Positions 4,238 to 64,000 of a DNA stretch of 64,000 nt are shown here, piece after piece. Below the pieces are notes generated by a model that saw only the letters and a list, made by a program, of their open reading frames with translations, was not told the origin of the DNA and made no database searches. The translations under genes were made by a program, and so were the position numbers. The stretch is from positions 104,284,001 to 104,348,000 of the forward strand of contig OX597820.1 in the NCBI GenBank assembly GCA_951406725.2, written 5' to 3'. Position 1 is the stretch's first letter. Each line of letters begins with the position of its first letter. Source of the stretch: Octopus vulgaris. Taxonomy: Eukaryota.

Positions 4238-5510
4238 CTGCATTATCAGTTGAAGAATTGGCAATAAAGCTTAGTTCAAACCATACAACTGTTCATCATC
4301 ATCTTCAACAACTTGGAAAGGTTCCTGAACTGCAACCGAAGCGACTCGAAATATGCACTCAGTTTATGGGAAAGAATGCTTGAATGAAAGAATTTGCAGA
4401 AGATGGTTTGCAGAATTCAGAAGTAGAGATTTCAGCCTTGAAGATGAAGATCGAACAGGACATCCAGTTGAGTTTGATGATAAGCTCCTTGAGGTATTAC
4501 TTGAAGAAAATCCTGCATTATCAGTTGAAGAATTGGCAATAAAGCTTAGTTCAAACCATACCACTGTTCATCGTCATCTTCAACAACTTGGGAAAGGTTC
4601 CTAAATTTGGAGAATGGGTGCCTCATGAATTGTCCGAAAGCAACCGCAAACCCTGAGTTGACATCTGCTCTTCTCTCCTTTCTCGCGAACTGATTTCACC
4701 ACTGTTCATCGTCATCTTCAACAACTTGGGAAAGGTTCCTAAATTTGGAGAATGGGTGCCTCATGAATTGTCCGAAAGCAACCGCAAACCCTGAGTTGAC
4801 ATCTGCTCTTCTCTCCTTTCTCGCGAACTGATTTCACCCTTTTTGGATAGACTTGTGACTGGTGACGAAAAAATGGATCTTCTATTGAAAAGTCGTAGAC
4901 AGTGGCTTGGTAAAAGGGGAAAAGCTCAACCACAACCGGGAAGGGAACTTCATGAAAAAAAGGATCTATTCTCTATCTGGTGGGATTGCAAAGGAGTAAT
5001 TCACTTTAAATTGTTACCACCTAATGCAACAATCAACGCTCAAGTCTACTGTCAGCAATTAGAGCGTTTGAACCAAGCTTCGAAGAAAAAAAAACCCGCT
5101 TTAGTGAATCGAAAGGGAGTGATGTTTCATCAAGACAATGCGCGAGCCCACACTGCAAAGATCACATCACAAAAGATCGAAGAGGTTGGTTGGGAAAAAA
5201 TTCCCCATCCACCTTATTCTCCCGACCTCACTCCTTCAGACTACCATTTGTTTCGTAGTTTACAAACTCATTTGGGAGGCATAACTTTTGCAAGCCAGGA
5301 GGAGGTCGAAACTGACATTTCAGAGTTCTTCGCTTTGAAACCGAAAGAGTTTTACATTGATGGGATTTAAAAGCTTGTAAATAGATGGAAGGAAGTCATA
5401 GATAATCAGGGGGAGGTACATTGATGATTAAATTTCAATTAAATATAACATTTGATCACTTGTTTTCTTTATTCAAAATTCGGACAGAACTTATGGGATG
5501 ACCTGACATA
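4238..5510 (+). mobile_element. Decayed mariner transposon (DD34D transposase pseudogene)
   Basis: Motifs TGDEK, HQDNARAH and HPPYSPDLTPSDYHLF; HTH region in the 4353 ORF; stops and frameshifts; 3' TIR-like end ...cttatgggatgacctgaca followed by TA. Confidence 0.93.
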
Positions 5511-30980: not shown

Positions 30981-31316
30981 ATATATATATATATTGCTTA
31001 TTTCAGTCAGACTGCGGTCATGCTGGAGTAGCACCTTGGAGGAGTTTTGTAGAATGAATCGCCCTCCACCCCCACCTCGCCAGTACATATTTTTAAAGCC
31101 TGATACTTATTCTATCGGATCTCTTTTGCCGAACTGCTAAGTTACAAGGACTTAAACACTATCTTTTAGTATTAAATTACGACTAGCCACATTGATAAAT
31201 TATGATTTGCAGTTTACCATTTTATGGACTCAGGCACTGATTCTTATGATATTTTCTATAAACTGACAAGGCGAGTTAACTTAACCCTAGGCAACGTATT
31301 AATTCTATCCGAAATC

Positions 31317-32286
31317 TATTTCTTTACTATCCACAAGGGGCTAAGCACAAAGGAGACAAACAAAGACAGACAGACGGATTAAGTCGATTACATCGATCCC
31401 AGGGCGTAACTGGTACTTAATTTATCGACCCCGAAAGGATGAAAGGCAAAGTCGACCTCGGCGGAATTTGAACTCAGAACGTAGCAACGGGCGAAATACC
31501 TATTTCTTTACTACCCACAAGGGGCTAAACACAGAGGAGACAAACAAAGACTGACAGACGGATTAAGTCGATTACATCGACCCCAGTGCGTGACTGGTAC
31601 TTAATTTATCGACCCCGAAAGGATGAAAGGCAAAGTCGACCTCGGCGGAATTTGAACTCAGAACGTAGCAACGGGCGAAATACCTATTTCTTTACTACCC
31701 ACAAGGGGCTAAACACAGAGGAGACAAACAAAGACTGACAGACGGATTAAGTCGATTACATCGACCTCCAGTGCGTAACTGGTACTTAATTTATCGACCC
31801 CGAAAGGATGAAAGGCAAAGTCGACCTCGGCGGAATTTGAACTCAGAACGTAACGGCAGACGAAATACCTATTCTTTATTACCCACAAGGGGCTAAGCAC
31901 TGAGGGGACAAACAAGGACAGACAGACGGATTAAATCGATTATATCGGCTCCAGTGCGTAACTGGTACTTAATTTATCGACCCCGAAAGGATGAAAGGCA
32001 ATGTCGACCTCGGAGGAATTTGAACTCAGAACGTAATGGCAGATGAAATACCTATTTCTTTACTATCCACAAGGGGACAAAGACAGAGATGACAAACAAG
32101 GACAGACAAACGGATTAAGTCGATTACATCGACCCCAGTGCGTAACTGGTACTTAGTTTATCGACCCCGAAAGGATGAAAGGCAACGTCGACCTCGGCGG
32201 AATTTGAACTCAGAACGTAACGGCAGACGAAATACTGCTAAACATTTCGTCCGGCGTGCTAACGTTTCTGCCAGCTCGCCGCCTTC
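31317..32286 (-). mobile_element. Head-to-tail array of five tRNA-derived SINE units inside one 15-bp TSD
   Basis: ~184-bp units starting at 31317, 31501, 31685, 31870 and 32053. Only the last carries the head aggcggcgagctggcagaaacg. ATTCTATCCGAAATC at 31302-31316 and 32287-32301. Confidence 0.93.
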
Positions 32287-44347: not shown

Positions 44348-44500
44348 ATCTGGAAAATTCTTTCCCAAAATTCCATTCTACCTATGTGATAGAGTATTAT
44401 AAATAAAAGAAATAAGCAAATCAATAACAAAATAGCAAGCACTGATCAGTATATAAATTTGCTGCTGAAGCAAACCGGCAGCAGATTCAGCAACAGCGGA
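44348..44500 (+). promoter_or_regulatory. Putative ISYNA1 core promoter: TATA box plus upstream HSE/TonE-like site
   Basis: TATATAAA at 44450-44457, ~170 bp upstream of the ATG. ATCtgGAAaaTTC (44348-44360) overlaps TGGAAAATTCT (44351-44361). Confidence 0.55.
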
Positions 44501-44619: not shown

Positions 44620-44745
44620 ATGTCTGCCAAGCCTTTGAAAGTTAAATCCCCCAATGTCAAATATACAGATGAATATATTGAAGCAGAATATGATTATACG
44701 ACCACAAGAGTTACTGATGATGGGGATTTTCTCATCGCCGAACCA
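44620..44745 (+). CDS. ISYNA1: Inositol-3-phosphate synthase (MIPS), coding exon 1
   Basis: ATG in Kozak-like context (gcaccATG). Encodes MSAKPLKVKSPNVKYTDEYIEAEYDYTTTRV...EP, the typical MIPS N-terminus. 126 nt, phase-0 donor GTACGT at 44746. Confidence 0.92.
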
Positions 44746-44941
44746 GTACGTGTCAAAAAAACGAATTTAACAAATTTTCATTACCTGATGTTAATTAATA
44801 CTTTTTATTAGAGTGTATATATTAAATGTGTATAAATGATATGCATGTACATTTCATATAAATAAATACGTATATGTACATACAGACAGCACACATGTTC
44901 ATATTTGCTTATATGTATGTATGTATATATATATATATATG

Positions 44942-45301: not shown

Positions 45302-45587
45302 TTAACAACTAAATACACTTTCCGAACCGAGCGGAAAGTTCCTCGTCTTGGTGTGATGCTGGTGGGCATCGGAGGCAACAATGGTTCCACTTTGGCGGCA
45401 ACGTTGATAGCAAATAAATGCGGGATGAAATGGCCAACTAAGAAAGGGATGCAAGAATCCAACTTTTATGGATCAATCACCCAATCTAGTACAGTATGTC
45501 TGGGGAACAGTCCTAGAGGAGAAGAAGTTTTTGTACCTTTAAATTATCTACTACCCATGGTAAAACCCGAGAATATCATTTTGGATG
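45302..45587 (+). CDS. ISYNA1: Inositol-3-phosphate synthase (MIPS), coding exon 2
   Basis: Polypyrimidine tract and CAG acceptor ending at 45301, in frame with exon 1. Encodes FRTERKVPRLGVMLVGIGGNNGST (Rossmann GxGGNNG motif), NFYGSITQSSTV and LLPMVKPENIILDG. Phase-1 donor GTGAGT at 45588. The next exon (GWDIS...) was not found in the window. Confidence 0.95.
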
Positions 45588-46274
45588 GTGAGTGCTTTAG
45601 CGCTGCTTTGATGTCAGTCTAACCTTCACACTTCGATTAGTCATTGGCTTTGCTTAGCTGGTTTGCATTTTGTCTAGAAAGGGAGATTTTAAATTGAGTT
45701 ATTTTTGGTTTGTTTAGATTCTTCACTTTCGGAACTAATATTCATTTTCTTCTGGTACTCTGATTCCAAGTTTCTGGAATTTTCTGTTATACATTGATCG
45801 ATCAGTCTCTATATTCGGAAAACATGCATACGATATATCTTTTCTCTTTCTAGATTATGTTTTAAATTGTTACATATTTAAGAATTTATTTATTCTCGTT
45901 CTATTATCAGATTCCAGACAATTTCCTAAGAATTAATGGCATACCTATCGATGTGTGCTGCTTCCAGATATCGGAATTAGTTGTGAAAATTTGTTTTGGA
46001 GTTTCGGATAATTCATGCATGACCACTTCGTTTCCTCGTAACTTTCTGGAAAAATTTTAAAATTCTTTCCTGAAATTTTCAGCTAATACATTTCGGATAA
46101 TATAGATTACAATTATCTCAGAATTTGATGCTGTAAAAGAAATTGTAGGATCGGATAATTCGCACAACCTTGATTTTGTTTTCTCATAAATTTTGATGAA
46201 TTATGCTCCTCCCCAGCAAAATTTTTTCACATCAATTTCCAATTTAATCATAATCCACATCTGAAACGTATCTA

Positions 46275-46610
46275 TGCTTTATCTTTTATTGTTTCAGTCG
46301 TTGGACTGCGGCCATGCTGGGGCACTGCCACGAAGAATTTTAGTCGAACGAATCGACTCCAGTATTTTCTTTTTAAGCCTGGTACATATTCTCTCGGTTC
46401 TCTTTTGCCGAATCGCTAAGTTACGGAAACGTAGGCACGACGACACTGGTTGTCAAGCGGTTTTCCACTATCAAATCCACTCACGAGGCTTTGGCTGACA
46501 ACCCGAGACAATAGCAGAAGACACTTGCACAAAGTGTCACGCAGTGGGACTGAACCCAGAACCACGTAGTTCGGAAGTAAACTACTTACCACATAGCCAC
46601 GCCTGCGCCT
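46275..46610 (-). mobile_element. Internally deleted SINE copy in ISYNA1 intron 2
   Basis: Head and tail of the same family; the central microsatellite region is missing. Confidence 0.85.
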
Positions 46611-48340
46611 ATTGTTGAAAATTTCATTAAAAAATATATGTTTTTCAAATTTATAAGGAAATAAAAATGTCGAGAGGTGGGAATTATGCGAAACGTCATC
46701 CCTCCCTCCAACTTTCTTTTTCACACCAAATTCCGACATAATCGTTATTTACACCATCTAAGACTTATTTGTAGAAAATTTTAGTTAAAAAAAATATGCG
46801 TTTTTGATAAAATTATGAAGTGACAAAGTCGTAGTGACATCTGTAGTTTTGTCGAATTGTTCTTCGTTAACCCTTTGAACTCTGGAATTTTTCATTTCTT
46901 CTAATCACGGTTTTAGGGATATATGAGGCATTTTCTAGAATGATTTATTATTGTTTTTATTATTTTGACAGGGTTTTAGGTTTCCATCTCACTATTATGA
47001 TATTTTGCATTTCTCTTTTGTTTTCTTGGCTTGGTTGTGAGATATGAAGTTCCAAAGACCCTGCACATGGCCTTTGCTGGTCCTATGCTGATACCTTTTA
47101 GAATTCAAAGCATTTCTTTATTTTGTGTAAGATTTTCGGTAAGCTTTTTTTTTTTTATATGTTGGAGTTTGCATAGAATTTTTACAGGTATTTTCTACAA
47201 GCCACCATGGGAGTTTATGCAGTTGCTGGATCTGCTAGAAATGTCAGCCAAGTCTCCCTCAAATCAAACCATAACATCCCCCCCATGCAAGAAAGGGCAT
47301 ATATAGTTCTAGATGAGTCCTGAAGATTTTTATCTTTTTAACTAATATTTAGAAATACAAGAATTCTCCAAAATTGTTATGCTACTTACTGTTTATTGGT
47401 GCATAACTTGCAAAACTTTCCTGGAGATCACCAAATATGACAGACTCTGGAATTTCCTAATATTACACGTGTCTATTCTAGCCACTTATAGCAATCACCA
47501 TAACTGTAAAACTAGAATTTTCCAATATATCTGTTGGCTCTGAAGCTGTCTGTCTTTCACTCTTTGTCTCCATATATGACAGACTCCGGAATTTTCCAGT
47601 CTTACTTGTATAATATAATCTTCCAACATTACTTTTTGTTAGTGTAACTGACATTCTTAGTTCTGACCTGCTACAGCACTCTTCCAATCTTACCTTTTGT
47701 TATCATAACTGATAGACAATAGAATTTTCCACCATATGTGACATCTAGTGTGTTGACCTGTTATAACAATCTTTTTGTTATTCTAAGTAACAAACTCTGG
47801 TGCTTTCTAGTAAAAATTTTATAATATTGTCTACTAGCTTTTGAGTAGTTTCTACTCTTTCTGGCCTTCCGAGGAAGTTTTTCAGTTTAACCTTTTGTCT
47901 TCATAACTGACAGATTCTGGAATTTTCAAATATTATTGATAACTGTTAATTCTGACCAGCCATAACAGTCTTTAACTTTTGTCATTATAACTGACATTCT
48001 GGAACTTTCCGATGTTCCTTTTATGATGTCTGTCAGTGGAGGAATGCTATAGCAGTTTTCCAACATTATATTTGTCACTATAACCGACACTCTGGAATTT
48101 TCTTCTATTTCTTAGGTCTTTTAGATTTTCTTGCAGACCAGTCTTTCAGCTTTACTTTTTGTCATCAAAAGTGACAAACTCTGGAATTTTCCAATACTAT
48201 TATGTTGGCTTCCCATAACAGTCTTTATTTTTGTTCAACATTTCTGATAAACTCTGGAATTTTACAATAATATAATACATCTGTTAGTTATAATACTTTT
48301 TATCTCTATAACTGGCAGACTCTAAAATTCTCCAATATTA

Positions 48341-48505
48341 AAGAGTAATGAATGACCATGGGAATTGCACCTAGAAAGTTACCCTCCAAGGTACAAGTCT
48401 GGGCAAGTTTGTTTATAGAAGACCAGCAGTCACCCATGTGTACCAGCCTTCCCTCACCGTGCCACTAATGTTATCTAAGGGAAAGGCAAGGCTGATACAG
48501 CTGTA
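48341..48505 (-). mobile_element. 5'-truncated SINE inserted in the satellite
   Basis: Reverse complement of about 34615-34765; TSD TCTCCAATATTA at 48329-48340 and 48506-48517. Confidence 0.88.
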
Positions 48506-48632
48506 TCTCCAATATTATATATCTGTTAGTTCTGGCCTATTATAGCAATCTTTATATTTTGGTGCTAAAACTAACAAACTCTGGAATGTTTCAGTATAAG
48601 ATGTCCATTAGCTCCGGAACAATCATTACACT

Positions 48633-48962
48633 GTTGTGTCTGTGGAGAGTCATTTTCTTTTTGTGTCTTATTATACAACACACTCACCGGTAAAATTTCC
48701 ACTTTTTTCTTATTTTTATTGTCCTAAAATTTTCATTGTGTCTTGCAACCTTTTCAATAGTTTTGACTCTAAACTATTGAAAAGGTTGCAAGACACAACA
48801 AAAATTTTAGGACAATAAAAATAAGAAAAAAAGTGGAAATTTTACCAGTGAGTGTGTTAAATAATAAGGCACAGAAAGAAAATGACTCTCCCCAGACACA
48901 ACAGAATATGCTTCAACACACGAACTCATATAAAGAATCTTGCAAACCAAATCCAAAAACAA
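48633..48962. mobile_element. Palindromic insertion with 12-bp TSD inside the satellite
   Basis: Arms at about 48632-48763 and 48771-48903; AATCATTACACT at 48621-48632 and 48963-48974. Confidence 0.85.
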
Positions 48963-51829
48963 AATCATTACACTTTGTCACTATAATTAAGATTCTGGAA
49001 TTTTTCAGCATTACTTATGTCATATAGTTCGGGTCTACAATAGCAGTCTTCCAAGCTTACATTTTGTCATACACTTGCACTTTGCTAAATGATACATTAG
49101 TTCTGTCCTTTGTCACCATGTCTGACAGACTTTGGAATTTTCCAGTATTACTTTGATGATGCCTATCTGTTACTTCTCTGTAGCCGAGCAGTCTTTCAAC
49201 ATACCTTTCTGTCACCATATGTGACAACACGCTGGAATTTTCCAATATATGATGTCTTCTATTTTAGTCTGCCATATAGCTGTCTTCAGATTTGTCAAGT
49301 TTGAAATTTTCTGTTATCACATTTCTCGTAGTTCTGACTTGTTACAGCAGCCTTTATTTTATGTCACCTGTCACGATAACTTAAAAACTTAGGAATTTTT
49401 CAGTTAATGCAAAATATCTACTAGTGCCAGAGCAGTCTTCATCCTCTGTTATCATAAGTAACAGACCCTAGAATTTTCTAGTACTACTTACGCAATGTCT
49501 GTTAGTTCTAGCCCACCTTAGCAGTCTTTAACTTTTGTCACAGTATCTGACAGATCTTGGAACTTTCCAGTTGTCCTTTTATAATAGTTATTTGTTCAGA
49601 CAGCGGTCTTCCAACATTACATTTGTCACTACAGTTGGAATATCTTCTAGTATTACTTATGTCTTTTAGTTCTCTATGCTGAAGCAGTATTCCAATATTA
49701 CAATTTTCTATGTTTATTTTTTTTGGCCTACCATAGCATTCTTTAACTTTGGTCAACTTAACCGACATACTCTAGCGTTTTCCAATAATATGTCTGTTAG
49801 CTTTGGAGCTGTCCTTTTGTCACTGTAACTGAAGCACTTTGGAATTTTCCTATAATATATTTCTATTAGTTCTGGTCTATTATAGCAGTCTTCCGGTATT
49901 ATCTTTTGTCATCATAAATGAAATGTTTTGGAAAGTTTTCATCTTTTGCTAAAGCAGTCTTTCACTTTTAGCACCAAAACTGACAAACTTGGGAATTTTC
50001 TAATATCATAAGTTGCTGATTAGCTCTGGAACTTGTCTTTATCCTTTGGAATATTCCAGTATTATTCACATGATGTCTGATAATTCTTGTTTGCTAGAGT
50101 AGTCTTTAATTTTGTTACCAACTGAGAAACTCTGGAATTTTCCAGTATTTCTTATATACGATAATTTAGATCTGCTGTAGCAGTCTTTCAGCCCACCTTT
50201 TGTCACAGAACTGGCAGACTCTGGAACTTTCCTGTATTATATTTCTGTTCTGACCTTTTATAGCAGTCATACCTTTTGTCATCATAACTAGCAGACTCTA
50301 GAATTTTCCAACATTATATAGCTGCTCGGGCTTGCTATAACAGTCACCTATTATTATCTTTGGTTTCTGGAAATGACACTGAAGTTTTCCAATATATTTT
50401 TATTAATTCTTCATCTTTTGTTAAAGCAGTTGCTGATTTTTGGCACCAAAAATGACTCTAAAATTTTCCAGTTTATAATATTCTTCTTACCTCTGGATCT
50501 ATTTTTGCTCTTTGTCATAACTGACAGATTCTAGAATGTTCCAGTGTTATATATTGTCTCTTAGTTCTGTCCTACAATCTTTTAAAATTACCTTTGTCAC
50601 AAACTTCCAATAATATATTTCTGTTAGTTCTAGCCTGTTAAAGTAGTCTGTTAATATTATCTTTTGTCACCATAAATGACACACTCTGGAACTTTCCAAT
50701 ATTTTGTTACTGCAGTCTAGCTTTTGGCAAAAACGCTGACAAATGTCTATTAGCTCACATAATGCCTGACAATTCTTGTGTTATAGTAGACTTTACCTTT
50801 TGTTATTAACTGAGAAACTTTGGAATTTTTCTGTATTTCTTATTTGATAAATTCTGGCCTGCTGCAGGAGTCTTCCATCCTACCTTTTGTCACAGAATTA
50901 ACAGATGCTTGAATTCTCCAATATGATATTTCTGTTAGTTCTAACCTGTTATTGCAGTCTTAGCTTTTTGTTACTACAAATGACAGACTCTGGAATTTTT
51001 CAGCATTTTATGTCCGTTTTGACCTGTTATAGCAGTTGTCCAGTATTGCCACTTGTCATTATAAATGACACATTAAGGAATTTTCCAGTATTATAATAGT
51101 TTTCTTAGCTCTGGATCTGTTTTTACTCTTTGTCATAGCTGACAGATTCTAGAATGTTCCAGTGTTATATATTTTGTCTCTTGGTTCTGCCAAATAATCT
51201 TCCAAAATTACCTTAATCACAATAACTGACATACTCTGGAATTTTCCAATAATATATTTCTCTTAGTTCTAGCCTGTCAATGCAGTCTTTTATTATCTTT
51301 TGTCACCATAAATGACACACTCCGGAACTTTCCAGTATTATATTTCTGTTTGTTCTGGATATGTTTATCTTTTGTTGTAGCAATCTTTAACTTTTGGCAC
51401 CAAAACTAACAAACTCAGGAATTTTCCAACATTATAAGACGCTTGTTAGCTTTGGATCTTGCTTTTTCCCTTCAACACTATAACTAACAGACTGTGAAAT
51501 ATTCCAGTGTTTATTAATGATGTCTGATAATTCTTGTATGATAATTCTTTTTTTACCAAAACTGAGAAACTCTGGATTTTTCCAGTATTTCATAAATGAT
51601 GTCTGGTGGTTCTAGTCTATGATAGTAGTTTTCTGGCTTTACCTTTCGTCACAGAATTAATAGATTCTTGAATTCTCCAATATTATATTTCTGTTAGTTC
51701 TAGCTTGTTATAACAGTCTATGCCTTATGTCACTGTAACTGAGTGACATCTATTACTTAGATGTTCCCTACTATAGCTGTCTATCAACGTTGCTTATTAG
51801 ACAATGGTTTGATTACCTTAACTTCAGCT

Positions 51830-52690
51830 GCTGGTTCTGGAATTTTCCAGTCAATCTATATGATATGCAGTGTATGAAATAAGGTTTTGCCTACCACAAT
51901 ACATTCTAAAATTTTGTATTAATTTATTGAGATATAAGCTTCGATTACTTCAGCAAATTCTTCTAGAATGTTCCAGTTTTTCTGCATGCCATTTAGAATA
52001 TGAAATTTTGCTTACCATAAATACATTATTTTGGAATGGAATTTTTCATCAATTCAATGCTACTTAAGAGATATAAAGGATTTGTCTAGTTTAGCTTTAG
52101 CAGATTCTGGAATTTTCCAATGAAATAGATATGTCTTTCTTCAATATATGCTAATTCAGTTTTCCATCAATTCTTTACTGCTTATGAAAGGTTTTGTTTG
52201 TTTTAACAAGTTCTTGTGGAATTTTCCGATTGTTCTAAAGGGCTCACAAAATATGAAATATATTTTTCCTTTTAACATATTCTGGAATTTTCCATCAATT
52301 CAATACAACTGATATAAAATTCAAGCATTTAATTATTTTAGCTTCTACAAATTGGAATTTTCCAACAGTTGAAAACAGTTTTTTACTGCAATACTTTTTT
52401 CTAGAATTTTCTACCAATTCAATGCAGCTTTTGAGATTATCAGAATTTTTCATTACTTTAGCTTCTGGGGTTTTCCAATTATTCTCTATGATATTTAGAA
52501 TATGAAATAGTTTTGCTTACCATACATAATGCATTGTTGTAGAATTCCTATCAATTCAGTGCAGCTTATGAGATATAAAAGACTTTTGCTTACTTTAACA
52601 GGTTTTCTAGAGTTTTCCAGTTGGTTTATGTGATTTGCAGGATGTGAAGTAGTTTTGCTTTGCATTCTTCTGGAATTCTTTTCATTTCAA
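51830..52690. repeat. Second degenerate repeat (type B) sharing the TTCTGGAATTTTCC core
   Basis: About 13 cores embedded in different flanks (e.g. ...ttccatcaattcaatgc, ...atatgaaatagttttgctt). Confidence 0.75.
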
Positions 52691-53005
52691 TTTCATCTCA
52701 AGAATTTATTTTATTCTAACAAAAAAAAAAAAGTCTCGTAGATTGTAGGTTTTTCATCATTCTTATGCAATTTTAGAGTTGTTTTATGGTTTATCTAATT
52801 CTTCCTGAATATACCTAAATGGTTCTCAAATTGGTCTCTTGTTTGTAAAGATATAGAATCTTAATTTATGCTATATAATGCTGAATGTATTTTTAGGCAC
52901 TTCGATCTTCAATAGCAGTACTTGTCTCTCGGTCCATCTATTGTAAATTTATTGAACTGTCTTACTTAGTTTTGATTGCCCCATTCCAAACTCAGTCTCC
53001 TATAA

Positions 53006-53225
53006 CTCTTTAGTGTTCAGATTATTCTGTCAACTGTGATGTTTGTTTATTTAAAATGGTTTGAATTAATCATGTATTATCTTGTAGTTTAGAGATTTCA
53101 GTGATGTGATTTTTTAGTTTTAGAACAACATGGTAGGGCTGAGGTGAGAGGCGAGATCTGGTCAGTTTCAATATAAAACAGGTTAAATATTTTGGTCAGA
53201 TATGGCTGGTTTGAATGCTAAAGGG
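53006..53225. mobile_element. piggyBac-like MITE
   Basis: Ends CTCTTTAGTGTTCA and TGAATGCTAAAGGG; flanks ATAA and TTAA. Confidence 0.65.
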
Positions 53226-56200
53226 TTAACTCTGACAAACAAATGAACTTGACTTTATGTACAATCTCCCTCCCTTTTACCCCTTTCATGTTTTCCCCTT
53301 ATTCAAATAAGGCTCTAACTAGAAGTTATGTTAACGAGATTTGAGGTCCAGGTAAGTGTGCAATTAGGTATTGTATTTTCTCTCCTGTGTGTATCAAATC
53401 TCTCATTAGACTTCAGAAAAGAGCACTCTTGAAAGAGGCAGATGAAGTTACTAGTCCCTGGAATAGTAAAGGGTAAACTTGGCAAAGACTAAGGAATTTC
53501 TGTTTTTGAGAGATGACCTAAAAGAAATTAAATTGGTAAAAATAAAAAAAGAAATTGAAAATATTTCTGGTATGATGTTGGTGCATGAAAGTGAATGACT
53601 TTGTTTGAAGAATGAAATAAATGTGAATCAGAGTGAGATATAGAGAATTTATGCATGAATAACATGGATGTTAAACTCAAATAGTTGAATGAACTAAAGA
53701 AATCTAGATTGGGATAGACCAATGAAATTATTACAGTTTAGGGAAGAAATTAAAAGAAAAGAAGGGAAAAGAAAATGCAATTGAGGAAAGGAAATCTTGC
53801 AAGCCATTTAGAATGTAATTCTGTCAGTGTTTAATTTGCTGACTTCTGCAGTCCAAAATGCTTTATTAATTCAAATGAGCTATTTCAGTGTTAGAATCAA
53901 ATCTACTCAAGATATGTTGTTAGAATATCTCACAAACATAATTTAACAGATTGCTATTGGTTGATGATTCCAAATAATTTTTCTAATCAATGTAAGATTT
54001 TCTCTGAAAATAGCTTGGGAGATTTTTTTTTTTTATCTTGGATTTTTTTCCATAGTGATAGTTAAGTTTTCATTGAAAAACAAAACTGGGAGCAGGATGG
54101 GCCTTATTCTGGATTGTTTTAAAATAAGTTGAATGGTAGAATCATTAGTGTTGGGCAAAATACCTTTTGATATTTAGTTCTTAGTGATACTTGTGCTTTA
54201 AAGACAGATGAAAGTATAAACCCTAGTGCCTGTTATGAGGATATTTCTACCCTTTGTATTATTATTAACTTTGAATGGCTTGAAGAGGGAATAATACCAC
54301 ACAGATCCTCTAATTAATGGAATATCTAGGATGTTGTCTGTCATCCTATGTAACACAAAGCTGATAGAAGAAAACTTAAATCTGAGTTCTTCTCAAAGTG
54401 ACTGATACTACATCATAGTGGAGGGGGCAGTGTAAAATTTTATTTGGATATTAGGAACAAAGGGGGCAGTAGGGATGAGAGGGAGCAACAGATAAATCTG
54501 TATTGTCTTTTTAGTTTTTGACTCTTATCTAAAAAAAAAAAAAATTAATTGTAATATGATAAGCCTGCTTGTTGGACACAATCACAACAACCTCATCGAC
54601 AATAATAAACTTTAATGTGTATATATAAATAAGCAAAGCTGTATGTATATATATATATATATATAGTACAAAGTAAGATAGGGGTTATGGGTGTAACCCA
54701 CCATGGGATATCATCCAATATACTGTTGGTAAAGTACCCAGATTCTAAATACATAAATGTTTTTAATTGCAATGCAATTAACTCATTTATTGTATTAAAC
54801 GGGTGAAGGTAAAGAAATATTTTTTACTGTAAATTTATAATACAAATAAGAAAATGGAGAAACCAATTTAGTTTGATCATCAACTTTCGGTATCTTATAT
54901 CTATTGAATTATAAGATATATATGTATGCTATTGATGTTCTCATTTTGTTAAATGAATAAATAATCCAGCATTTTAATATCCGAAAGTTGATGAACAAAC
55001 CAAATTTGTTTCTCCATTTTCTTATTTGTATTATATATATATATATATATGTAACATTTTCTCTGAAAATACCTTTAGAGATTTTGTTTTTATTGTGGAT
55101 TTTTTCCATAAGTAATAGTTAAGTTTTTATTGAAAAACAAAACTGGGTGTAGGATGGGCCTTATTCTGGATTGTTCTAAAATTAGTAGGATGGTGCTATA
55201 TATGGTGAGTAGCCACCTATGTCAAACTAGTACTGAGAACTAAATTACTCTGGTCTGATATTACAAATTTGTACATCAAAAATGGTGGTGGTGAGAGGCA
55301 TTGATAATGTCTTAATAAAGGATAAAGTTTAAGAGGCACTGCTCTGAATATTAATAATAATACAGCTGAAACAATGTAAAGCTATGAATGAAATATTGAG
55401 TGTAAAAATCTAATTTGAGACTGGTGGCGGTTAGTAAATGCTGACTTCAATTTGTGATGTTCGTACATGGAAAGGTTGGAAATTTTTCATATGTAACTTG
55501 TAAGGATTGTATGTGAATTTTTAAAAGGAAAAATTTGTTTGATTCTGGGTTTGAGTTGGACCAAAATTTTATCAATAACAAGACATTGTCATGATTGGGG
55601 GTCAATTGCAATTCACCCGAGTGTGAACACAATCATCTATATTATATAAATATACATACAATACACACACATGTGTGTGTGTGGTGTGTTTATATATATA
55701 TATATATGTTTGTATGTATAAGATATGTAAATTATGTAGAATAGGTAATGTATAAATCCTTTTGTCTATATGATAGAAGGAACTATTACATTTCAGTATA
55801 TACTTTAAAATAATATAATACCAAAAAAAGTATGCAATGTTTTCTGTATGAAAAGTGTCTTTTGTATATAGTCAGGTCATTTTTGTTGATACCAAACAGT
55901 AAACTTGATTACAAGTTCAGTTCCTGTCACAATAGGTTTTGAGTTATGACAAGTTTGTTCTCGTTTGGTATTTTTATATTTATATTGGGTTGAATTTTGT
56001 TTTATTGCAAAAAAGCAAGATGTTAGCATAGTATTGTTTAAGATTGACATACATATCCTTGAGAATTTGATTTGGTAGCTTTCTATTTAAAACAAATTCT
56101 AGACTCGACTTGTTTGTTATCCTGTTGAGAAAACAGCTGTGTACGTTTAGAAGCAGGTTGTATCAGAGGATAGTTCTTCTCTATATGGAGAAGAGTTTGT

Positions 56201-57495
56201 TGGGAAATAATTATGCTATACATATTCTGTTGTTTTGGACAGTGGCAAAAATATTTTGTGTGTGTGTTTGGATGTACAAACAAGATTTACTAGCTTCACT
56301 GAAATATATTTATACACACACAGTAAAAAAGAATTTTGTTAAAGCAATTATCCCCACATGGTGAGTTGTAATGCAAAAATATATAATAACAGAAGGAAAT
56401 GCACACAGTTTACATAGATTTAATAAATTTAAAGGGTAGAGTATTTGTGATAGTCAACCAGTTTTGCATTTTGCTAATCATGACATTGAAATTATTGCAA
56501 TTTTGTATTTTCTTAAGAAGTTTTTAGTCCATGTTCTTGTAAATGAATTGGCATGTAGAAAAATCTAAGAGGAAGTGTATATAAGTGAGTGCACAAATGA
56601 AAAAAGAGGTACTCGGTAGCAGTCATGTATATTTTTCAATAAGTTTCACTCAGCACTGGATGGCTTAAAGTTTTGTGGGCTTATAAGATAGATCAATCTC
56701 ATTAGATATCTGATGAGATGGTTTTGTCCAACGATCCAATGCAACTTGGAGCTGAGTCAACTTCTCATTAAAATATATACTTGGAGCTGGGTCAACCTCT
56801 CATTAACATATATACATATACTTTATAACTTTTATGTAACTTTACATCTCTATATATAATCATGCAATAGTTGTAAAACATATAGAAATATATTTTACAA
56901 ATTAGAAACATTATCCAATATAGAAGACAAGATACAAGTTGATAGTTTACCCAGTTTTGCCCTTGGTGACACTTGAAGTAGTCTGTCAAATTTTGATATA
57001 CCATTAAAAAAAAATATTCTTAAAGTATATTTTGTTTTGTTATAAAGCAATGAAATTGCTTTGACAGAAAAAGTCAAATTTAAGACAGATATTATCATTT
57101 TTTAAACACTTGAGGTTGACATCTAGCAGCTATTGGTTGTTTCCAAGAGTCAGATAATTGCACAAGCTGATATTTAGTGAATTACATACTCTGAAGATAA
57201 TCCCTCCTCAAGTGGCATTAATGTAATTTTTCTAACATTCAAAGTTGAATTTTCATTTTTGCTTATGACTAACATATACCGGAGTTGTCTGTTCAAAATA
57301 ACTATCTATTTATACAAGTGAATTTATTCATATAATTTAACATCTTTTATTTCAGTTTATCATAATTTAATAATTTCTTTCGTCATTCTAAATGACTATT
57401 ACTTTATTGTGTGAGATATGGAGCAATTCACATGCCTACACTTTTTTTTTTAGCTAAGTAGGGAGTATTTAAGAATAAAAAAAAAAATGTGGGCA

Positions 57496-57701
57496 ACACA
57501 CCGGGCGAAGTGCTTGGGAGTATTTCATCTACCATTACATTCTGAGTTCAAATTCCGCCAAGGTCAACTTTGTTTTTCATCCTTTTGGGATCGATTAAAT
57601 AAATACTAGTTATGCACTGGGGTCGATGTAACCGACTTAATCCCTTTGTCTGTCCTTGTTTGTCTCCTCTATGTTTAGCCCCCTGTGGGCAATAAAGAAA
57701 T
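57496..57701 (+). mobile_element. Monomeric copy of the SINE that forms the 31.3-32.3 kb array
   Basis: Collinear with the array unit; ends ...aataaagaaata. Confidence 0.9.
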
Positions 57702-58749
57702 AAAATTTGGGGATTAGGGAAATTTAGCTCAATCTTTTGAAAAAAAAAGAATGTATTATGGATTTTTTAAAAATCTAAAGGTACTAGTCGAACTCCTGGT
57801 GTGAAAATGAAAATAATGTTTCAAACAGTCTGATATATTGATCAAGGAGTATAATTTTTAATTGTTCAGACAAGTTAGAAAACAATAGCTACATATCTAT
57901 ATGAAAAGAAACAATTCAGGGATCATTTGGTTAATTCGTTTTCATAGTGAAATTAATAGTTAGTGACTGTGTGCCCAAGATAGTATTGTCCTTTCACAAG
58001 ATCATTTATTGTCATGTGTAATATAGAAAGTGCCATCAAATTAGTTGTTTTCAGTTATGGCTAAATTTTTTGAAGATTAAAGACCTGATGAATGATCTCC
58101 CTTCTACGACTCAACGAGAAAGTAGCAACGTTTATGTTTTATGGTCAACGTCTGGATGTCATTAAATGCATTTTATGTTATTTTAAAATGTAGTTCAAAT
58201 TTACAAGTTTACCTTTTGCATTAGTATTTTTGTAGGGTTTGTAACTTGTTAAATATTATTAAATGTCTCATTTTGACGTGAAAATAGTAAATAAATCTTA
58301 AATCAAATCATTTCAAAGTATTGATCATAGAAACTCCATACAAATTATTTAAAAATAAAACCTGTTGATGAAATATATAATTTTTAATTCAATATTGCTA
58401 CTTTAAAACTAAAAAAAATACCAAGAGATTAAAATCGAAAGCCAACTACTGGTGTTGTAACAGCTTTCGTGTGACTCCTGCAGTCCATCATCAACAGGTG
58501 TCAACTGGAGAATGACTAGACCATGGAAAAAACCCAGTATTTCTACTATCTCAGAAATGCTTTTAGAGGAAAGAGATAATACTGAGCTGTAGGAGAGGGA
58601 GCGCTCCATCTTGTTAGCTGATGGTCTTTGAAAGGCTTACTATTATAACAAATTTTAACTAATTACCAATAAATACTCTCAAAGTGAAATCCATATAAGA
58701 TGTTAGTAATATTTTTCACAAAACCAAAAGCTTTATTATTGTTGGTTTC

Positions 58750-59900
58750 ATATCAAATAATACTTCATCTTATGCAGACATAGTATATCTGGACAAAAGT
58801 ATATTCATGAAAATATACTTTTTGTGCATAATGAGAAATATGCTCAAAAGGTTGGATTTTTTTTCATGTACATTTAACTGCATATGTCTTACAATGATAA
58901 CTGATATTAATCTTTGATATAGCTTCAGTTATTACTATCGTTGTCTTTGTGTTGCGTTTTTTTATTGTGCAGTCATTGCAAGTTATTGTCCTTGATATGC
59001 CTATAAGTCTGTCTTTGTTTCTGTAACCCATGGAGAGTTTTGTAGGCGTTGAGTAAGAAGACCCAAATTTGCTATAAGACAAACCCCACTTAATGATAAA
59101 GATGCCAGGAAAATTTTTCAATTTTGGTATCCAAACAGAAACAATGGCAAAACTTTGGTAATTTGAAATCAAAATAATCTTGATGTAAAAGAAAAGAAAC
59201 CTATAGTTTTTTCAGCACGTAGTATTGTGGCTGTCATGAAATTCCAGACATGTTTTTCCTTGTATTCATTGAAGATGTCACATACCTTCAGTTAAAAGGA
59301 GAGATGTTGTTAGCTGACATGCTGAAACAGCTGATGAATTGAAATTACTGGAACCCAAGCAACATGGCAACAAATCAATAAATGACTCTTTAGGAATAAA
59401 TTCACAAGCATCATTTTGTAAATGGAATGAAGTTGATGGAAAACTCTGAGCAAGAGAGAATTAAACTGTCATAATTGTGGTTAAAGACACAGGAAAAAGT
59501 GTCTAACATTCAAATTAAAGTGACCTAAATATGGAAAGCTACTTCACTTTACTAAATATTATTGCTCAGGTTCTATCTATGGCATCAATGAATTTTTATA
59601 CAAAGACATGCTCAATGTGCCTTCATGCTTAATATCAACAATGTACATCTTGATTAATGTTTTAAATATCTACTATAAATTGAACAACGTTCCAATTAGA
59701 ATGAAAATAGGTAGTGGTGCATCTTGTTCAATTATCCTTTATTCCTATATTGATACGATCATTTCAGCATTATTATTCATCAGTTAAAAATTTAGATAAC
59801 TTGCTGTTCAGCACTGAAGATGAAGAACTCCTTGCTAATTTTTCATGGAGGAATTAATGTCACAGATTTTCCTTTGACTTCAGATTAAATGGAATAGGGC
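58750..59900 (+). mobile_element. Highly decayed Gypsy-like gag-protease remnant
   Basis: At ~59677-59736 the frame reads KLNNVPIRMKIGSGASCSII, resembling a retropepsin DTGASxS motif. Boundaries are guesses. Confidence 0.4.
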
Positions 59901-61048
59901 ATTTTATACTGAGGTACATAACAACTATTGACAATATTTTTGAAAGGTCATATAGCTAGTGTTTTATGGGGTAGAAGAATAAGCAACATAAGCCAATTTC
60001 ACTGCTGAAATCATTAACAGAGACCCCTAGTAATCAGCTATTCTTATTGGAAAAGGTTATTCTATGGATACTGAACTTATTTTGAAAATCATTAGTGGGA
60101 ATATTATCCTATAGCAGTCATTAGCCAGATTTAATAAGTCAACGAAACTAGTTTAATATTGAGTGTAAGGGTTATGCCATTAATTTGGTGCATTGAATAA
60201 TTGGGACGATTTCTATTTGGATGTAACTTGTTCAATCATGGACCAGCAACTTTTAAAAACTATTTTCAGTGATCTGTCACAGGGAACTTCATAAAAAGAA
60301 TTGTTTGTTTTACTGTAAAATAGGTTTTAGGTAAATTAAGACTGCATATTTCCTAACTTGACTTGGATTTGGAACCTACACTGGTTTTCTGTTCACTTCA
60401 CTGATTAGCTAAAATTCATGTGAACACACAAACACAACTGAGTTGGTTAACAATCACTTGAATCATACAGGGAGATAATGAAGATATCTTTGCTACAGTT
60501 GTGGGGATTGAGAGTTGTGGGCCTTGATAAGCCATTGCGTTAATTTGTCTTTCTGCAAACAGTGAAGAATTCTAAGAATTTATAAAGGTGTATGTGCAAT
60601 CTTTCCACTTATACTATTAAAACAAAACAGTTTTAGAATTAGTTTGAGTGTCATGCAAATTATAATACTGATACTTCAGGTAGTGATGTGTTCAGGTGAT
60701 ATGTTAATTCAATTAATGATTGCTTGGGTATCTTTCCTTTATCTGGTTTTCTGATTCAATGAATACAACCAATTTAGGTATCGTCAGTTTCAAATCTTAG
60801 TAATTAAATTGGTAATTAGGGAATATCTAGAAAATTGCAGCTTGTTCTTGTAGCTACTTTTTTTATAATTAAAAAAAAATTTTTTAAGTGTCACTAATTG
60901 ATATTTTCTGTTTTTAATGCATTGGATAATTCTATTACTAATATTTTAAAATATAAAGTGTTTTGTGTGTGGAATGTCTTTACATTTTGGAAGCAGCTTG
61001 TTTAAAACAGATGAAAGAGAAATAAATTAATATTTCTGACTGTGTGTG

Positions 61049-61081
<33 letters not shown>

Positions 61082-64000
61082 GGTGAAGGCAGAATTAGTA
61101 GAGATTTGCACCTTTGTTATTTCTGAATTCAAATATAGCACTGATAGATTTTCTCTTTCTTACAACCCTTCATATTTTTGGGGTCAGTAAAATATATCTA
61201 GGGTTGGTATTGACTGTACCCTTGAAGTCCAAGTCCTAGTATAGCCAAAGTCCTCTGACTAGAATCAGTAAACGACTAAATAAATATCTGTAAATATTAA
61301 GTGTAAAATGTGATTAGTTAAGTTCAAAAAGTTTACATATTTGGGAAATATTTATGAATATGTAAAATACAGAAACCATACAAAATCTTCTGTAAGTATG
61401 AAAAGCTAAGCCATCGGAAAATGCTGGTAAGACATTTCATTTTGAGTAATTCAAACGATGGATTAGGACACAATTTTATGTGTAGTAAATGTTTTATGGC
61501 ACACTTCCAGAGAAAACAGCAGATTGTATGGTTGTTCTTACAAATAAAGTTTCTTTGTTTCTGAAGTGTTGGTTCATTCCTTGCTCAATGCTGTATCTTG
61601 TCCACAAAGAATGCAGCTAAGCTGTAAAACCATCTGCTCTGCCCTTGTAGCAATTTATTTTGCATGCCGTGTGCAAAAAAAAAAAAAAATTCTTTTGCTA
61701 TTTTGAATGTTTGATTCCCAGGGAATCAACAAGAACAGAATTGCTACACAAGATCAAGCTGTATGTCAGTCACCTACTGACGTGAGTTTATATTTTGCAG
61801 TTTCTTATGTCTTATTTCAAGTCTAGCTATTTTTATTTCACTGTTCAAATAGTTAAAATGCTGTGATTTTAAACTCTATGAACAAGAATACTCACACACA
61901 TTCAGATGCACTCGTGCTTTCAGACACACACACACACATTCAGATGCACATGGACGTACTCACAAACATACAAATGCAATCATGTTTGATAGTTAGGAAA
62001 TCTGTTACTCATTCAATAGATAAATTCTGAAAATATTCTGTAGTATATTTGATCTTCAATTCTAGTAAAGACTGTTTGTGTATTACAGAATAATGATATT
62101 AATAATAATTAACTCTTCTGATAATCATATTCAATCTTGAAGGGTTTTCAGCAATTATATTTAATGAAATAGAACATTAATTCTGAATAAAAACTGATTT
62201 CTATTTTATCAGTAACCTTTTCTGCTATACATATTGGTTATGTAAGCTGTTGACAAAGTATTGTTTATGCTGAAGTCAATTTGATTGACTTATAGATCAA
62301 AACTTTCCAGCTATGGCCACCTCTACTATTTTTCGGGCATAACATACTTTGGACAGCTCTGTACAATGTCTTTTTTTAAGACAATAGAGTATATAATTTG
62401 AGGGTGATTTGGTTGCTGTTTCTAACATGTTGAATAAGTACGGATACAGAACTTATGAAACAGTTATCCTATATTTTCTTTAATATTTCAGACCAGAAAT
62501 AAAATTATATATTTTCTATTGGTTGAATTAAAACTTTTGTCAATTTTCCCATGAAAACCTTGTTTTTAATCAATTCTTCACTAAAACACAAGTTTCCTTT
62601 TTATACAGTAATCTATTCACCTAGTTTACCTTGGCATTTCATGATCTGTGTGAGTTAAATATTGTTCACCTATTTGAAAACCAGTCCATTTGTAACACTA
62701 GACAGAGTAGCAACACTTCAAATTAAGGATACTTTTCCAAAAGTAAATAATCTATTTTTTTGGAATGTGTTTCAATATCAGAAAACCAATGTGTATCTTA
62801 TGTATTTCAAGTGGTCTACTCAAAGTATACAATTTGATAGATGCATTTGTATTGCATCATAAATGTTCTGGACTTATGGCGTAGAATAAACCATTTTGCA
62901 GCTGCACTGTGTTGGTGAAGTATTTGAAAAATTATGGGACTTGGGCCTTATCTAACTCCAGCAATCAAAACTCTAAGGCCATAACTATAGCTATTGTCCT
63001 GTATTCATTCAAATCTTCCCTACTTGCTAGCTTTTCTTTTTAATTTTTACTTCAGTGCAACTTATATTATTGGAGTTTTCTTAAACTCTTAACTTAAATG
63101 AAGGTAAGTGTTAAATGCAATTAATTTAACCTGCTTTATTGATGATTATCTTGATGATTATCTTGTTTTTAATGCTTTTTTAAAGACCATTTTATTGAAT
63201 GACTTGATCTCCAAATGTGCCTACTTATTAACAAAGTTAAAGAATCTTGTTTTTTTTTTCCCCCTACTTATTGAATTCAAACCGAGAAGTAGGTTTTCAT
63301 TTTGGCTATGAAATAACGTCTGTAGCCAGGCTGTTTTTTCATTCAAGATTCTTTCCAGCTTGCGATGTCTTCAAATTACCTCCCTTGCTTCATACCTTCT
63401 TTTTAACAACTTTACTATACCACGCCGCACTCACTACAAAGTTGATTTCATAACATTATCCTAACCATCAGAATTTTTCTGCTCCTCACATCATGTGTCA
63501 TTTTACACTAAATGTTAGCATATGAGTACTATTGTTGCCTGCTACATAGCTATGATGGGCAAGGTGCTCAAAATCTAAGATAAATTCTTATCAGATATAC
63601 TGCAGTAGAAGAGTTAACATACACGATTAGTTTTATTTGTGTGAATTTAGATCTATAATTACAAAACATATTTTGGATAGAAATTGAAAGTAATCACTTC
63701 TAGTATGAAATGGTTTCATATGTTGTATGGAAAGTACATTTGTGGTGACTATGACCTCTGTTGGCTTCCTATGTGATGTGTACTTATATACGATTTGTGA
63801 GAAATTTAACCAACTAGTATTTTACTCCTGTTAGCAGTGAAGCTTTATGTTTGTGTGTATGCTTAATTGAATGGAATATTTTTTAAACTCAGTCATTAGC
63901 TCTTGCTTTAGGGCAGAACAGCTAACAAGGATAATGACTGAAAACAGATAAAGAAACACGTAATCTTATGGATAACTAAATAGGCAAGAGTTTATAGTTT

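Follow-up and report, generated by a model that had tools for sequence, protein, structure and literature searches.

Two unrelated tandem-repeat families with a common stress-element-like core in intron 2 of the Octopus vulgaris ISYNA1/MIPS gene

In the second intron of the octopus inositol-3-phosphate synthase gene (ISYNA1/MIPS), two otherwise unrelated repeat families, A and B, carry one short core more than 50 times in total. Across the 64,000-nucleotide stretch of Octopus vulgaris DNA analysed here (the window), the gene, the position of the arrays, the two unrelated spacer families, the common core and its excess conservation in A are established. From this arrangement we infer, tentatively, protein binding, a choice of factor, enhancer activity and a dose effect: the arrays may be an intronic homotypic ISYNA1/MIPS enhancer driven by HSF alone or together with NFAT5. 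The feature is genuine and was correctly described by the sequence-only reading that pointed to it; its motif is more ambiguous, and its context better, than that reading supposed.

The window is AT-rich animal DNA with many microsatellites. Two exons (Table 1) encode the start of inositol-3-phosphate synthase, with 97% identity to Octopus bimaculoides ISYNA1 and 92% to Argonauta hians (best hits among 299). Searches by tblastn with five named orthologues recovered exons 1 and 2 only and no third exon in the window, so we assigned the sequence from 45588 to the window end to intron 2, which is repeat-rich. Both arrays lie inside this intron, where repeats start 1.8 kb in, and extend from 2.8 to 8.1 kb downstream of the ATG. 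A coding repeat was ruled out, since no ORF longer than 101 codons stop-to-stop was found over 47300-53000.

Table 1. Gene features, repeat arrays and selected core matches in the window
Feature	Positions	Strand	Basis and remarks
Isolated core relative TCTGGAAAATTCT	44349..44361	+	promoter-proximal, ~260 bp upstream of ATG; TonE on + strand and one-mismatch HSE; single copy, could be chance
ISYNA1/MIPS coding exon 1	44620..44745	+	tblastn, O. bimaculoides protein, 87.5% over 48-aa hit; splice donor inferred from GT at 44746
ISYNA1/MIPS coding exon 2	45302..45587	+	Pfam PF07994 E 3.2e-28; PDB 9m53 E 9.9e-29
ISYNA1/MIPS intron 2	45588..64000	+	>18.4 kb; tblastn of 5 orthologues
Isolated perfect TTCnnGAAnnTTC	45772..45784	+	ahead of arrays
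Type A array	47420..51770	+	~84-bp unit, ~50 copies; 39 cores at <=3 mismatches (relaxed scan, 47446-51666); partial higher-order duplications
Palindromic insertion in array A	48631..48904 (to ~48970)	.	~275 bp, arms 89% complementary, single copy in window
Type B array	51780..52690	+	7 dimers of B2+B1 halves, ~132 bp; 14 cores
B2 core	51835..51849	+	motif scan; perfect HSE + TonE (minus strand)
B2 core	51961..51975	+	motif scan; perfect HSE, no TonE
B2 core	52105..52119	+	motif scan; perfect HSE + TonE (minus strand)
B1 core	52280..52294	+	motif scan; perfect HSE + TonE (minus strand)
B1 core	52399..52413	+	motif scan; perfect HSE, no TonE

Array B is a strict alternation of B2 and B1 halves with cores at 51836, 51905, 51962, 52035, 52106, 52153, 52215, 52281, 52351, 52400, 52464, 52538, 52606 and 52669, of which 13 are ungapped and one (at ~52538) has a 1-nt deletion; a decayed B1 spacer (HMM match 51786-51824, E 1.2, weak) marks its start near 51780. 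The sequence-only reading had held that type-A flanks disappear from B, that new flanks recur there and that five of about 13 copies are perfect HSE matches. The A flank TTTTGTCA indeed occurs 11 times in A and never in B, and we counted five perfect TTCnnGAAnnTTC among the 13 ungapped B cores. The new flanks recur as described, three and two times in B and not at all in A (<=2 mismatches), but rather than forming one unit they alternate within a ~132-bp dimer, the first belonging to its B2 half and the second to B1. The window contains 10 perfect TTCnnGAAnnTTC where 0.80 would be expected, and none of 100 shuffles reached 10; all 10 fall within 45772-52411, and the five in B compare with a maximum of one in 300 dinucleotide shuffles of that region. 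A PWM trained on A cores alone returned 11 plus-strand matches in B (shuffle mean 0.31, maximum 4, 300 shuffles). Type B gave no blastn match to a phage collection, and prokaryotic promoter predictions (9 found, 5.7 expected) are irrelevant in a eukaryote.

Array A also holds higher-order duplications at 49820-51740, with offsets of ~600-760 bp (618-760 bp) and ~1400 bp and 67-72% identity; an origin of its unit as a dimer of two ~43-bp halves was rejected (p 0.46 at the single cut point tried). Just upstream of the core, the A unit contains an inverted pair, TGTCA...TGACA, with near-core conservation (columns 63-83) that is absent from B; we assume TGACA(G) to be a TALE-homeodomain-type word. 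Short direct copies of AATCATTACAC, near 48620 and 48965, flank the palindromic insertion and may be a target-site duplication; the sub-threshold Rfam miRNA matches of the insertion reflect its hairpin only. A doubly variant core, TTCTAGAATGTTCCAG, recurs at 50529 and 51147, in A units that are 618-bp duplicates, and at 51961, in a B2 unit; its presence in both arrays could reflect conversion between them or chance.

Several other repeats lie in the window. Five tandem 184-bp copies at 31316-32235 (93% matches), which look to us like an octopus SINE fragment, seem to have a reverse copy near 57620-57700. Two identical 138-bp copies at 4560-4838 can encode WVPHEL, presumably a mariner transposase motif; their 100% identity may mark an assembly duplicate. 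A diverged duplication of ~130 bp (~54000-54135 and ~55060-55190) bears a weak core-like word in each copy (PWM 54108, 55165), and by eye an inverted pair lies between the copies, near 54840-55030.

Spacer comparisons separate A from B. With cores removed, self-similarity was high within A (z 48-65), B1 (z 16-18) and B2 (z 13-16) and weak between B1 and B2 (z 5.5-6.8), and A against B stayed at shuffle level (z about -0.2 to 1.6, reverse complements included). Copy-level tests, restricted to A inter-core intervals 64-101 bp long (27 of 38), agreed (B1 and B2 versus A, z 0.3-1.6), the B1 global score being reached by 9 of 200 shuffles. An A-spacer profile HMM produced 57 matches at E<=10, 52 starting in A, five scattered at E>2 and none in B. 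Thus core-masked alignment and HMM search, the check proposed with the sequence-only reading, yielded no end-to-end alignment, the outcome on which that reading would have given up its second family, and an origin of B as the old, diverged edge of A is ruled out by shuffle-level spacers and the absence of A-HMM matches in B. B spacers did outscore random downstream-intron windows against A (0 and 2 of 200), an excess we put down to composition because dinucleotide shuffles remove it, and a TTTTG..ACCATAA likeness between the A and B2 consensus was not significant (p 0.11). We also rejected B as inverted A: a consensus p of 0.005 (A versus reverse-complemented B1, one of 10 tests) did not recur in the copy-level test (z 1.3, 15/200), although a very distant homology of A with inverted B1 may exist. 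On these comparisons, B is a family separate from A with only the core demonstrably common to both, and B1 and B2 derive from one older monomer. The chance that an unrelated 66-bp unit holds a copy of the 15-mer with at most one mismatch is ~6e-6.

The core is better kept than its surroundings in A. When 12-base windows were masked in turn during alignment, no window scored above the core (0.72): the flank directly upstream of it reached 0.65-0.66, and mid-spacer windows 0.43-0.55. Column by column, core exceeded flank at G/C (0.74 versus 0.56, p 0.002) and A/T positions (0.84 versus 0.73, p 0.008), p values that are optimistic because A copies are related by duplication. Within the A core, the six GAA/TTC columns outranked the other columns of the same base class (G5 0.80 and C12 0.83; A6, A7 and T10 0.89; T11 0.96), the left arm was weakly kept (T1 0.74, C2 0.67), and T8 and T9 lay nearer flank level (0.77 and 0.81 versus a median of 0.76). 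Bootstrapping after collapse of near-duplicate units gave an A/T contrast in A of 0.086 (CI 0.013-0.158), which lost significance once B was added, and a G/C contrast that spanned zero. Together these values suggest moderate constraint on the A core.

In B, by comparison, the masked core (0.80) was not better conserved than the best flank windows (0.78-0.80). B2 cores were 0.81 alike versus 0.69 for their spacers, and B1 cores 0.63 (ungapped) versus 0.72 (gapped), a comparison that penalizes indel-bearing B1 cores; the flank-anchored table in the same analysis used 32 of 38 rows (four dropped for a poor flank, one in the insertion and one at the array end). A and B2 cores were as alike (0.71) as A cores among themselves (0.67). 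The B1 and B2 consensus cores agreed at 13 to 15 of 15 columns versus ~64% in spacers, with p from 0.05 to 0.001 depending on the treatment of two tied columns.

How far these patterns speak for selection, which the sequence-only reading had argued from the sharing of one motif by two families, depends on the array. The elevated A core columns and the likeness of A to B2 cores support constraint on the motif; sharing alone is no proof of selection, because slippage between adjacent copies of a single short word can set off both expansions, and B1 cores do not rise above their own spacers. Under such a neutral origin, which we consider somewhat unlikely, pre-existing near-palindromic words 65-85 bp apart would have been amplified as two separate stretches by slippage or unequal exchange and kept uniform by conversion, with no present regulatory role. 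The direct abutment of A and B with the core alone in common fits this origin, as do the B1 cores, the A flank beside the core, which is nearly as well kept, and a B1-B2 contrast that reaches just the p values given above; moreover, the available text on Meloidogyne (PMC3694981) describes the conserved boxes found where dissimilar satellites meet as points of rearrangement. It nevertheless needs a prior cluster of the same 14-mer, itself in need of explanation, and sits poorly with the excess of A core over flank columns after masking and with a GAA-2-TTC spacing that survives a slippage-prone T run in nearly all copies. The word is, in addition, a near-textbook stress element within a known stress-response gene. 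The Meloidogyne CENP-B-box-like satellites offer a parallel in that dissimilar monomers (32-64% identity there) keep a short motif at family junctions; those are genome-scale satellites, whereas the octopus case is a 5-kb single-locus intronic array in a 64-kb window whose motif is a candidate stress-factor site (PMC3694981, as available).

Motif identity was assessed over 52 cores (39 A and 13 ungapped B; the gapped core was left out). The block common to A, B1 and B2 is the whole of TCTGGAATTTTCCA, 'nn' positions included; it starts at the initial T of TTC, ends with the last A, and is preceded by C in 29 of 39 A cores and by T in 11 of 13 B cores. The first triplet is accordingly CTC, not TTC, in 29 of 39 A cores. 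Perfect matches to TTCnnGAAnnTTC, the Pelham-type HSE consensus, number 5 of 13 in B and 4 of 39 in A, rising to 7 and 17 with at most one mismatch. Set against the definition of an HSE as three inverted AGAAN units (PMC2936546, in the part available), TCTGGAATTTTCCA shows the central GAAnnTTC without mismatch, while its left arm fits exactly in B and misses by one base in A. Twelve of 14 bases also agree with the human HSP70 reporter HSE CTGGAATATTCCCG, as given in the accessible text of PMC2793398.

Read on the minus strand, the core is TGGAAAATTCC, which fits the NFAT5 (TonE) consensus TGGAAANNYNY quoted in PMC6401628 (text seen in part) and differs at one of 11 bases from TGGAAAATTAC, the TonE of 8xTonE reporters as reported in PMC11838016. 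Of the 39 A cores, 17 carry the TonE consensus on this strand, as do six of the 13 in B, at 4.4 and 6.6 per kb versus 0.2-0.4 in distant flanks (in B, six observed versus a shuffle mean of 0.30, maximum 3). The HSE label attached to the core by the sequence-only reading is thus not unique, the same bases forming a minus-strand TonE. Both the HSE dyad and TonE are present in 18 cores, the dyad only in 13, TonE only in five and neither in 16, so that GAAnnTTC is kept in 31 of 52 and TonE in 23. Column contrasts between HSE-only and TonE-only positions all spanned zero (G5 versus C13; A7 versus T9/A14; left arm versus TonE-only; bootstrap). The canonical NF-kB pattern GGGRNNYYCC, with its GGG start, is not a reading of the core: it matched three times in the window, once inside the arrays (52467). 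A 13-mer match in a Sleeping Beauty primer has a flank unlike the A or B spacers by eye and was taken as chance (PMC3474723, available part).

These data do not separate the two candidate regulators. The sequence slightly favours HSF, because the common block has a left arm that TonE does not need and because the six GAA/TTC columns rank top; gene context favours NFAT5, because tilapia MIPS is described as osmotically induced via OSRE1, which shares TGGAAAA (PMC12645818 and PMC7374092, each in its available part).

For the intronic enhancer bound by HSF, the HSE arm explains the left three bases of the common block and TonE does not, the GAA/TTC columns show the A/T contrast in A that excludes zero, and the dyad is the more frequent of the two patterns. 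Gene-body location has precedent, with 72% of Drosophila HSF sites reported in gene bodies; the same report, as far as its available text goes, gives binding for fewer than 15% of good HSE motifs, which weighs the other way (PMC2936546). Further points against this enhancer are the perfect three-arm HSE in just 4 of 39 A cores, the weakly kept left arm and the lack of drift from CTC towards TTC in A, the G/C and HSE-only versus TonE-only contrasts that span zero, the fading of the A/T contrast with B, the decayed look of B1 cores and a B core no better kept than its best flank windows. Literature on HSF and this enzyme, octopus MIPS and cephalopod salinity yielded no HSF-MIPS link in an animal.

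An alternative in which the minus-strand NFAT5/TonEBP element TGGAAAATTCC is the selected site, serving hyperosmotic or ionic-stress induction of inositol synthesis, and in which the likeness to an HSE merely follows from the palindromic form of a Rel-family site, appears unlikely. The TonE density of both arrays and the near-match to the reporter TonE would be expected from it, and T9, C13 and A14 (0.86-0.89) exceed the HSE left arm (0.72-0.83), a contrast that is not significant. NFAT5 is stated to exist in molluscs (PMC11838016) and is reported from mussel (PMC11898675), both sources in part. Tilapia supplies the closest gene-level precedent: in the accessible text of PMC7374092, the MIPS OSRE1 shares the TGGAAAA core, an intronic, reverse-strand OSRE1 is functional in glutamine synthetase, and induction runs from 1.2- to 7.6-fold with one to five copies, in proportion to copy number; the octopus candidate sites are likewise intronic and on the minus strand. 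The likeness has limits. The tilapia OSRE1/TonE sites (MIPS, IMPA1.1, glutamine synthetase) are described there as six sites in two genes, not tandemly repeated and no more than a few hundred bp from the start site (-232 to +56; PMC7374092, same text), whereas in octopus 23 of the 52 cores match TonE and lie kilobases inside intron 2. The exact 17-bp consensus DDKGGAAWWDWWYNNRB has no match in A or B, NFAT5 accounts neither for the common left TC(T) nor for G5 and A7 being so strongly kept, and 13 cores keep the HSE dyad only against five with TonE only.

Two further origins bear on the repeats themselves. Arrays that are internal repeats of a decayed Helitron-like transposon, which carried the sites in, would have a precedent in Caenorhabditis Helitrons and a setting in a repeat-rich intron, but this is very improbable: A, B1 and B2 spacer HMMs have no E<1 matches elsewhere in the 64 kb, and the arrays are without the long ORF sought above. 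In Caenorhabditis, as in our case, many HSE-type sites are multiplied in a repeat and could put a neighbouring gene under stress control; there, overlapping tandem HSEs lie in a mobile element with many genomic copies and HSF-1 binding to these arrays within repeats is demonstrated, whereas the octopus arrays consist of single cores 50-100 bp apart in two unrelated unit types without transposon features (PMC6927752, available part). Human satellite III also recruits HSF (HSF1) to tandem repeats, as proposed here, but is described as pericentromeric, short-unit and transcribed into non-coding RNA, in contrast to an intronic array in a metabolic gene (PMC9032817, PMC2173303, both in part). A core acting as an RNA or DNA hairpin, or as a small-RNA precursor in the pre-mRNA, is least credible of all. 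It is near-palindromic, and A-T replaces the G4-C13 pair in three of 52 cores; that pair is, however, broken (A-C or T-C) in 13, mean folding z is -0.58 in A and -0.01 in B, and Rfam gave no match at gathering score and, of the 28 sub-threshold matches listed, none in B.

Lone relatives of the core occur outside the arrays. Besides those in Table 1, we found them at ~46044, 46881 and 47357, a weak excess over 45590-47400 (three of 150 shuffles reach three PWM hits). The relatives at 44349, 45772, 46044 and 46881 all keep TCTGGAA, and the central AA of two of these places TonE on the plus strand.

For the enhancer that we tentatively favour, one short binding site would have gone through two separate amplifications: one, to ~50 copies, took the A spacer along, and the other took the B spacer, which doubled into B1 and B2 before its 7-fold expansion. 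Selection would have retained the site as the spacers between its copies diverged. HSF trimers would, under stress, occupy the GAAnnTTC dyad plus the left TTC or CTC arm, NFAT5 would possibly share the site via the overlapping minus-strand TonE, and inositol synthesis would rise in proportion to intact core copies. Inositol is a protein stabiliser. It is also described as a compatible osmolyte in the accessible text of PMC12645818. A bolder form, which we hold to be quite improbable, is a dual stress enhancer: one 15-bp site, HSE with an opposite-strand TonE, amplified more than 50-fold by two independent expansions, at which heat (HSF) and ionic stress (NFAT5) would converge on inositol synthesis, with gain set by a copy number that would differ among octopods by habitat.

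We found no description of this array in the literature on octopus MIPS, mollusc NFAT5 and salinity, and tandem HSE arrays (subscription papers and supplements being outside the scope), and no paper on octopus MIPS regulation in that on octopus or mollusc MIPS, cephalopod salinity and HSF. The control of osmolyte synthesis under heat and salinity stress is poorly described in cephalopods, and the locus supplies a single gene, a 15-bp site and a pair of candidate factors. Should the neutral origin be true, it would still be a compact example of array switching at a common motif. As a case for repeats recruited as binding-site amplifiers the locus is clean, because its three unit types, built around a common core, serve as an internal control of a kind not available in a single satellite.
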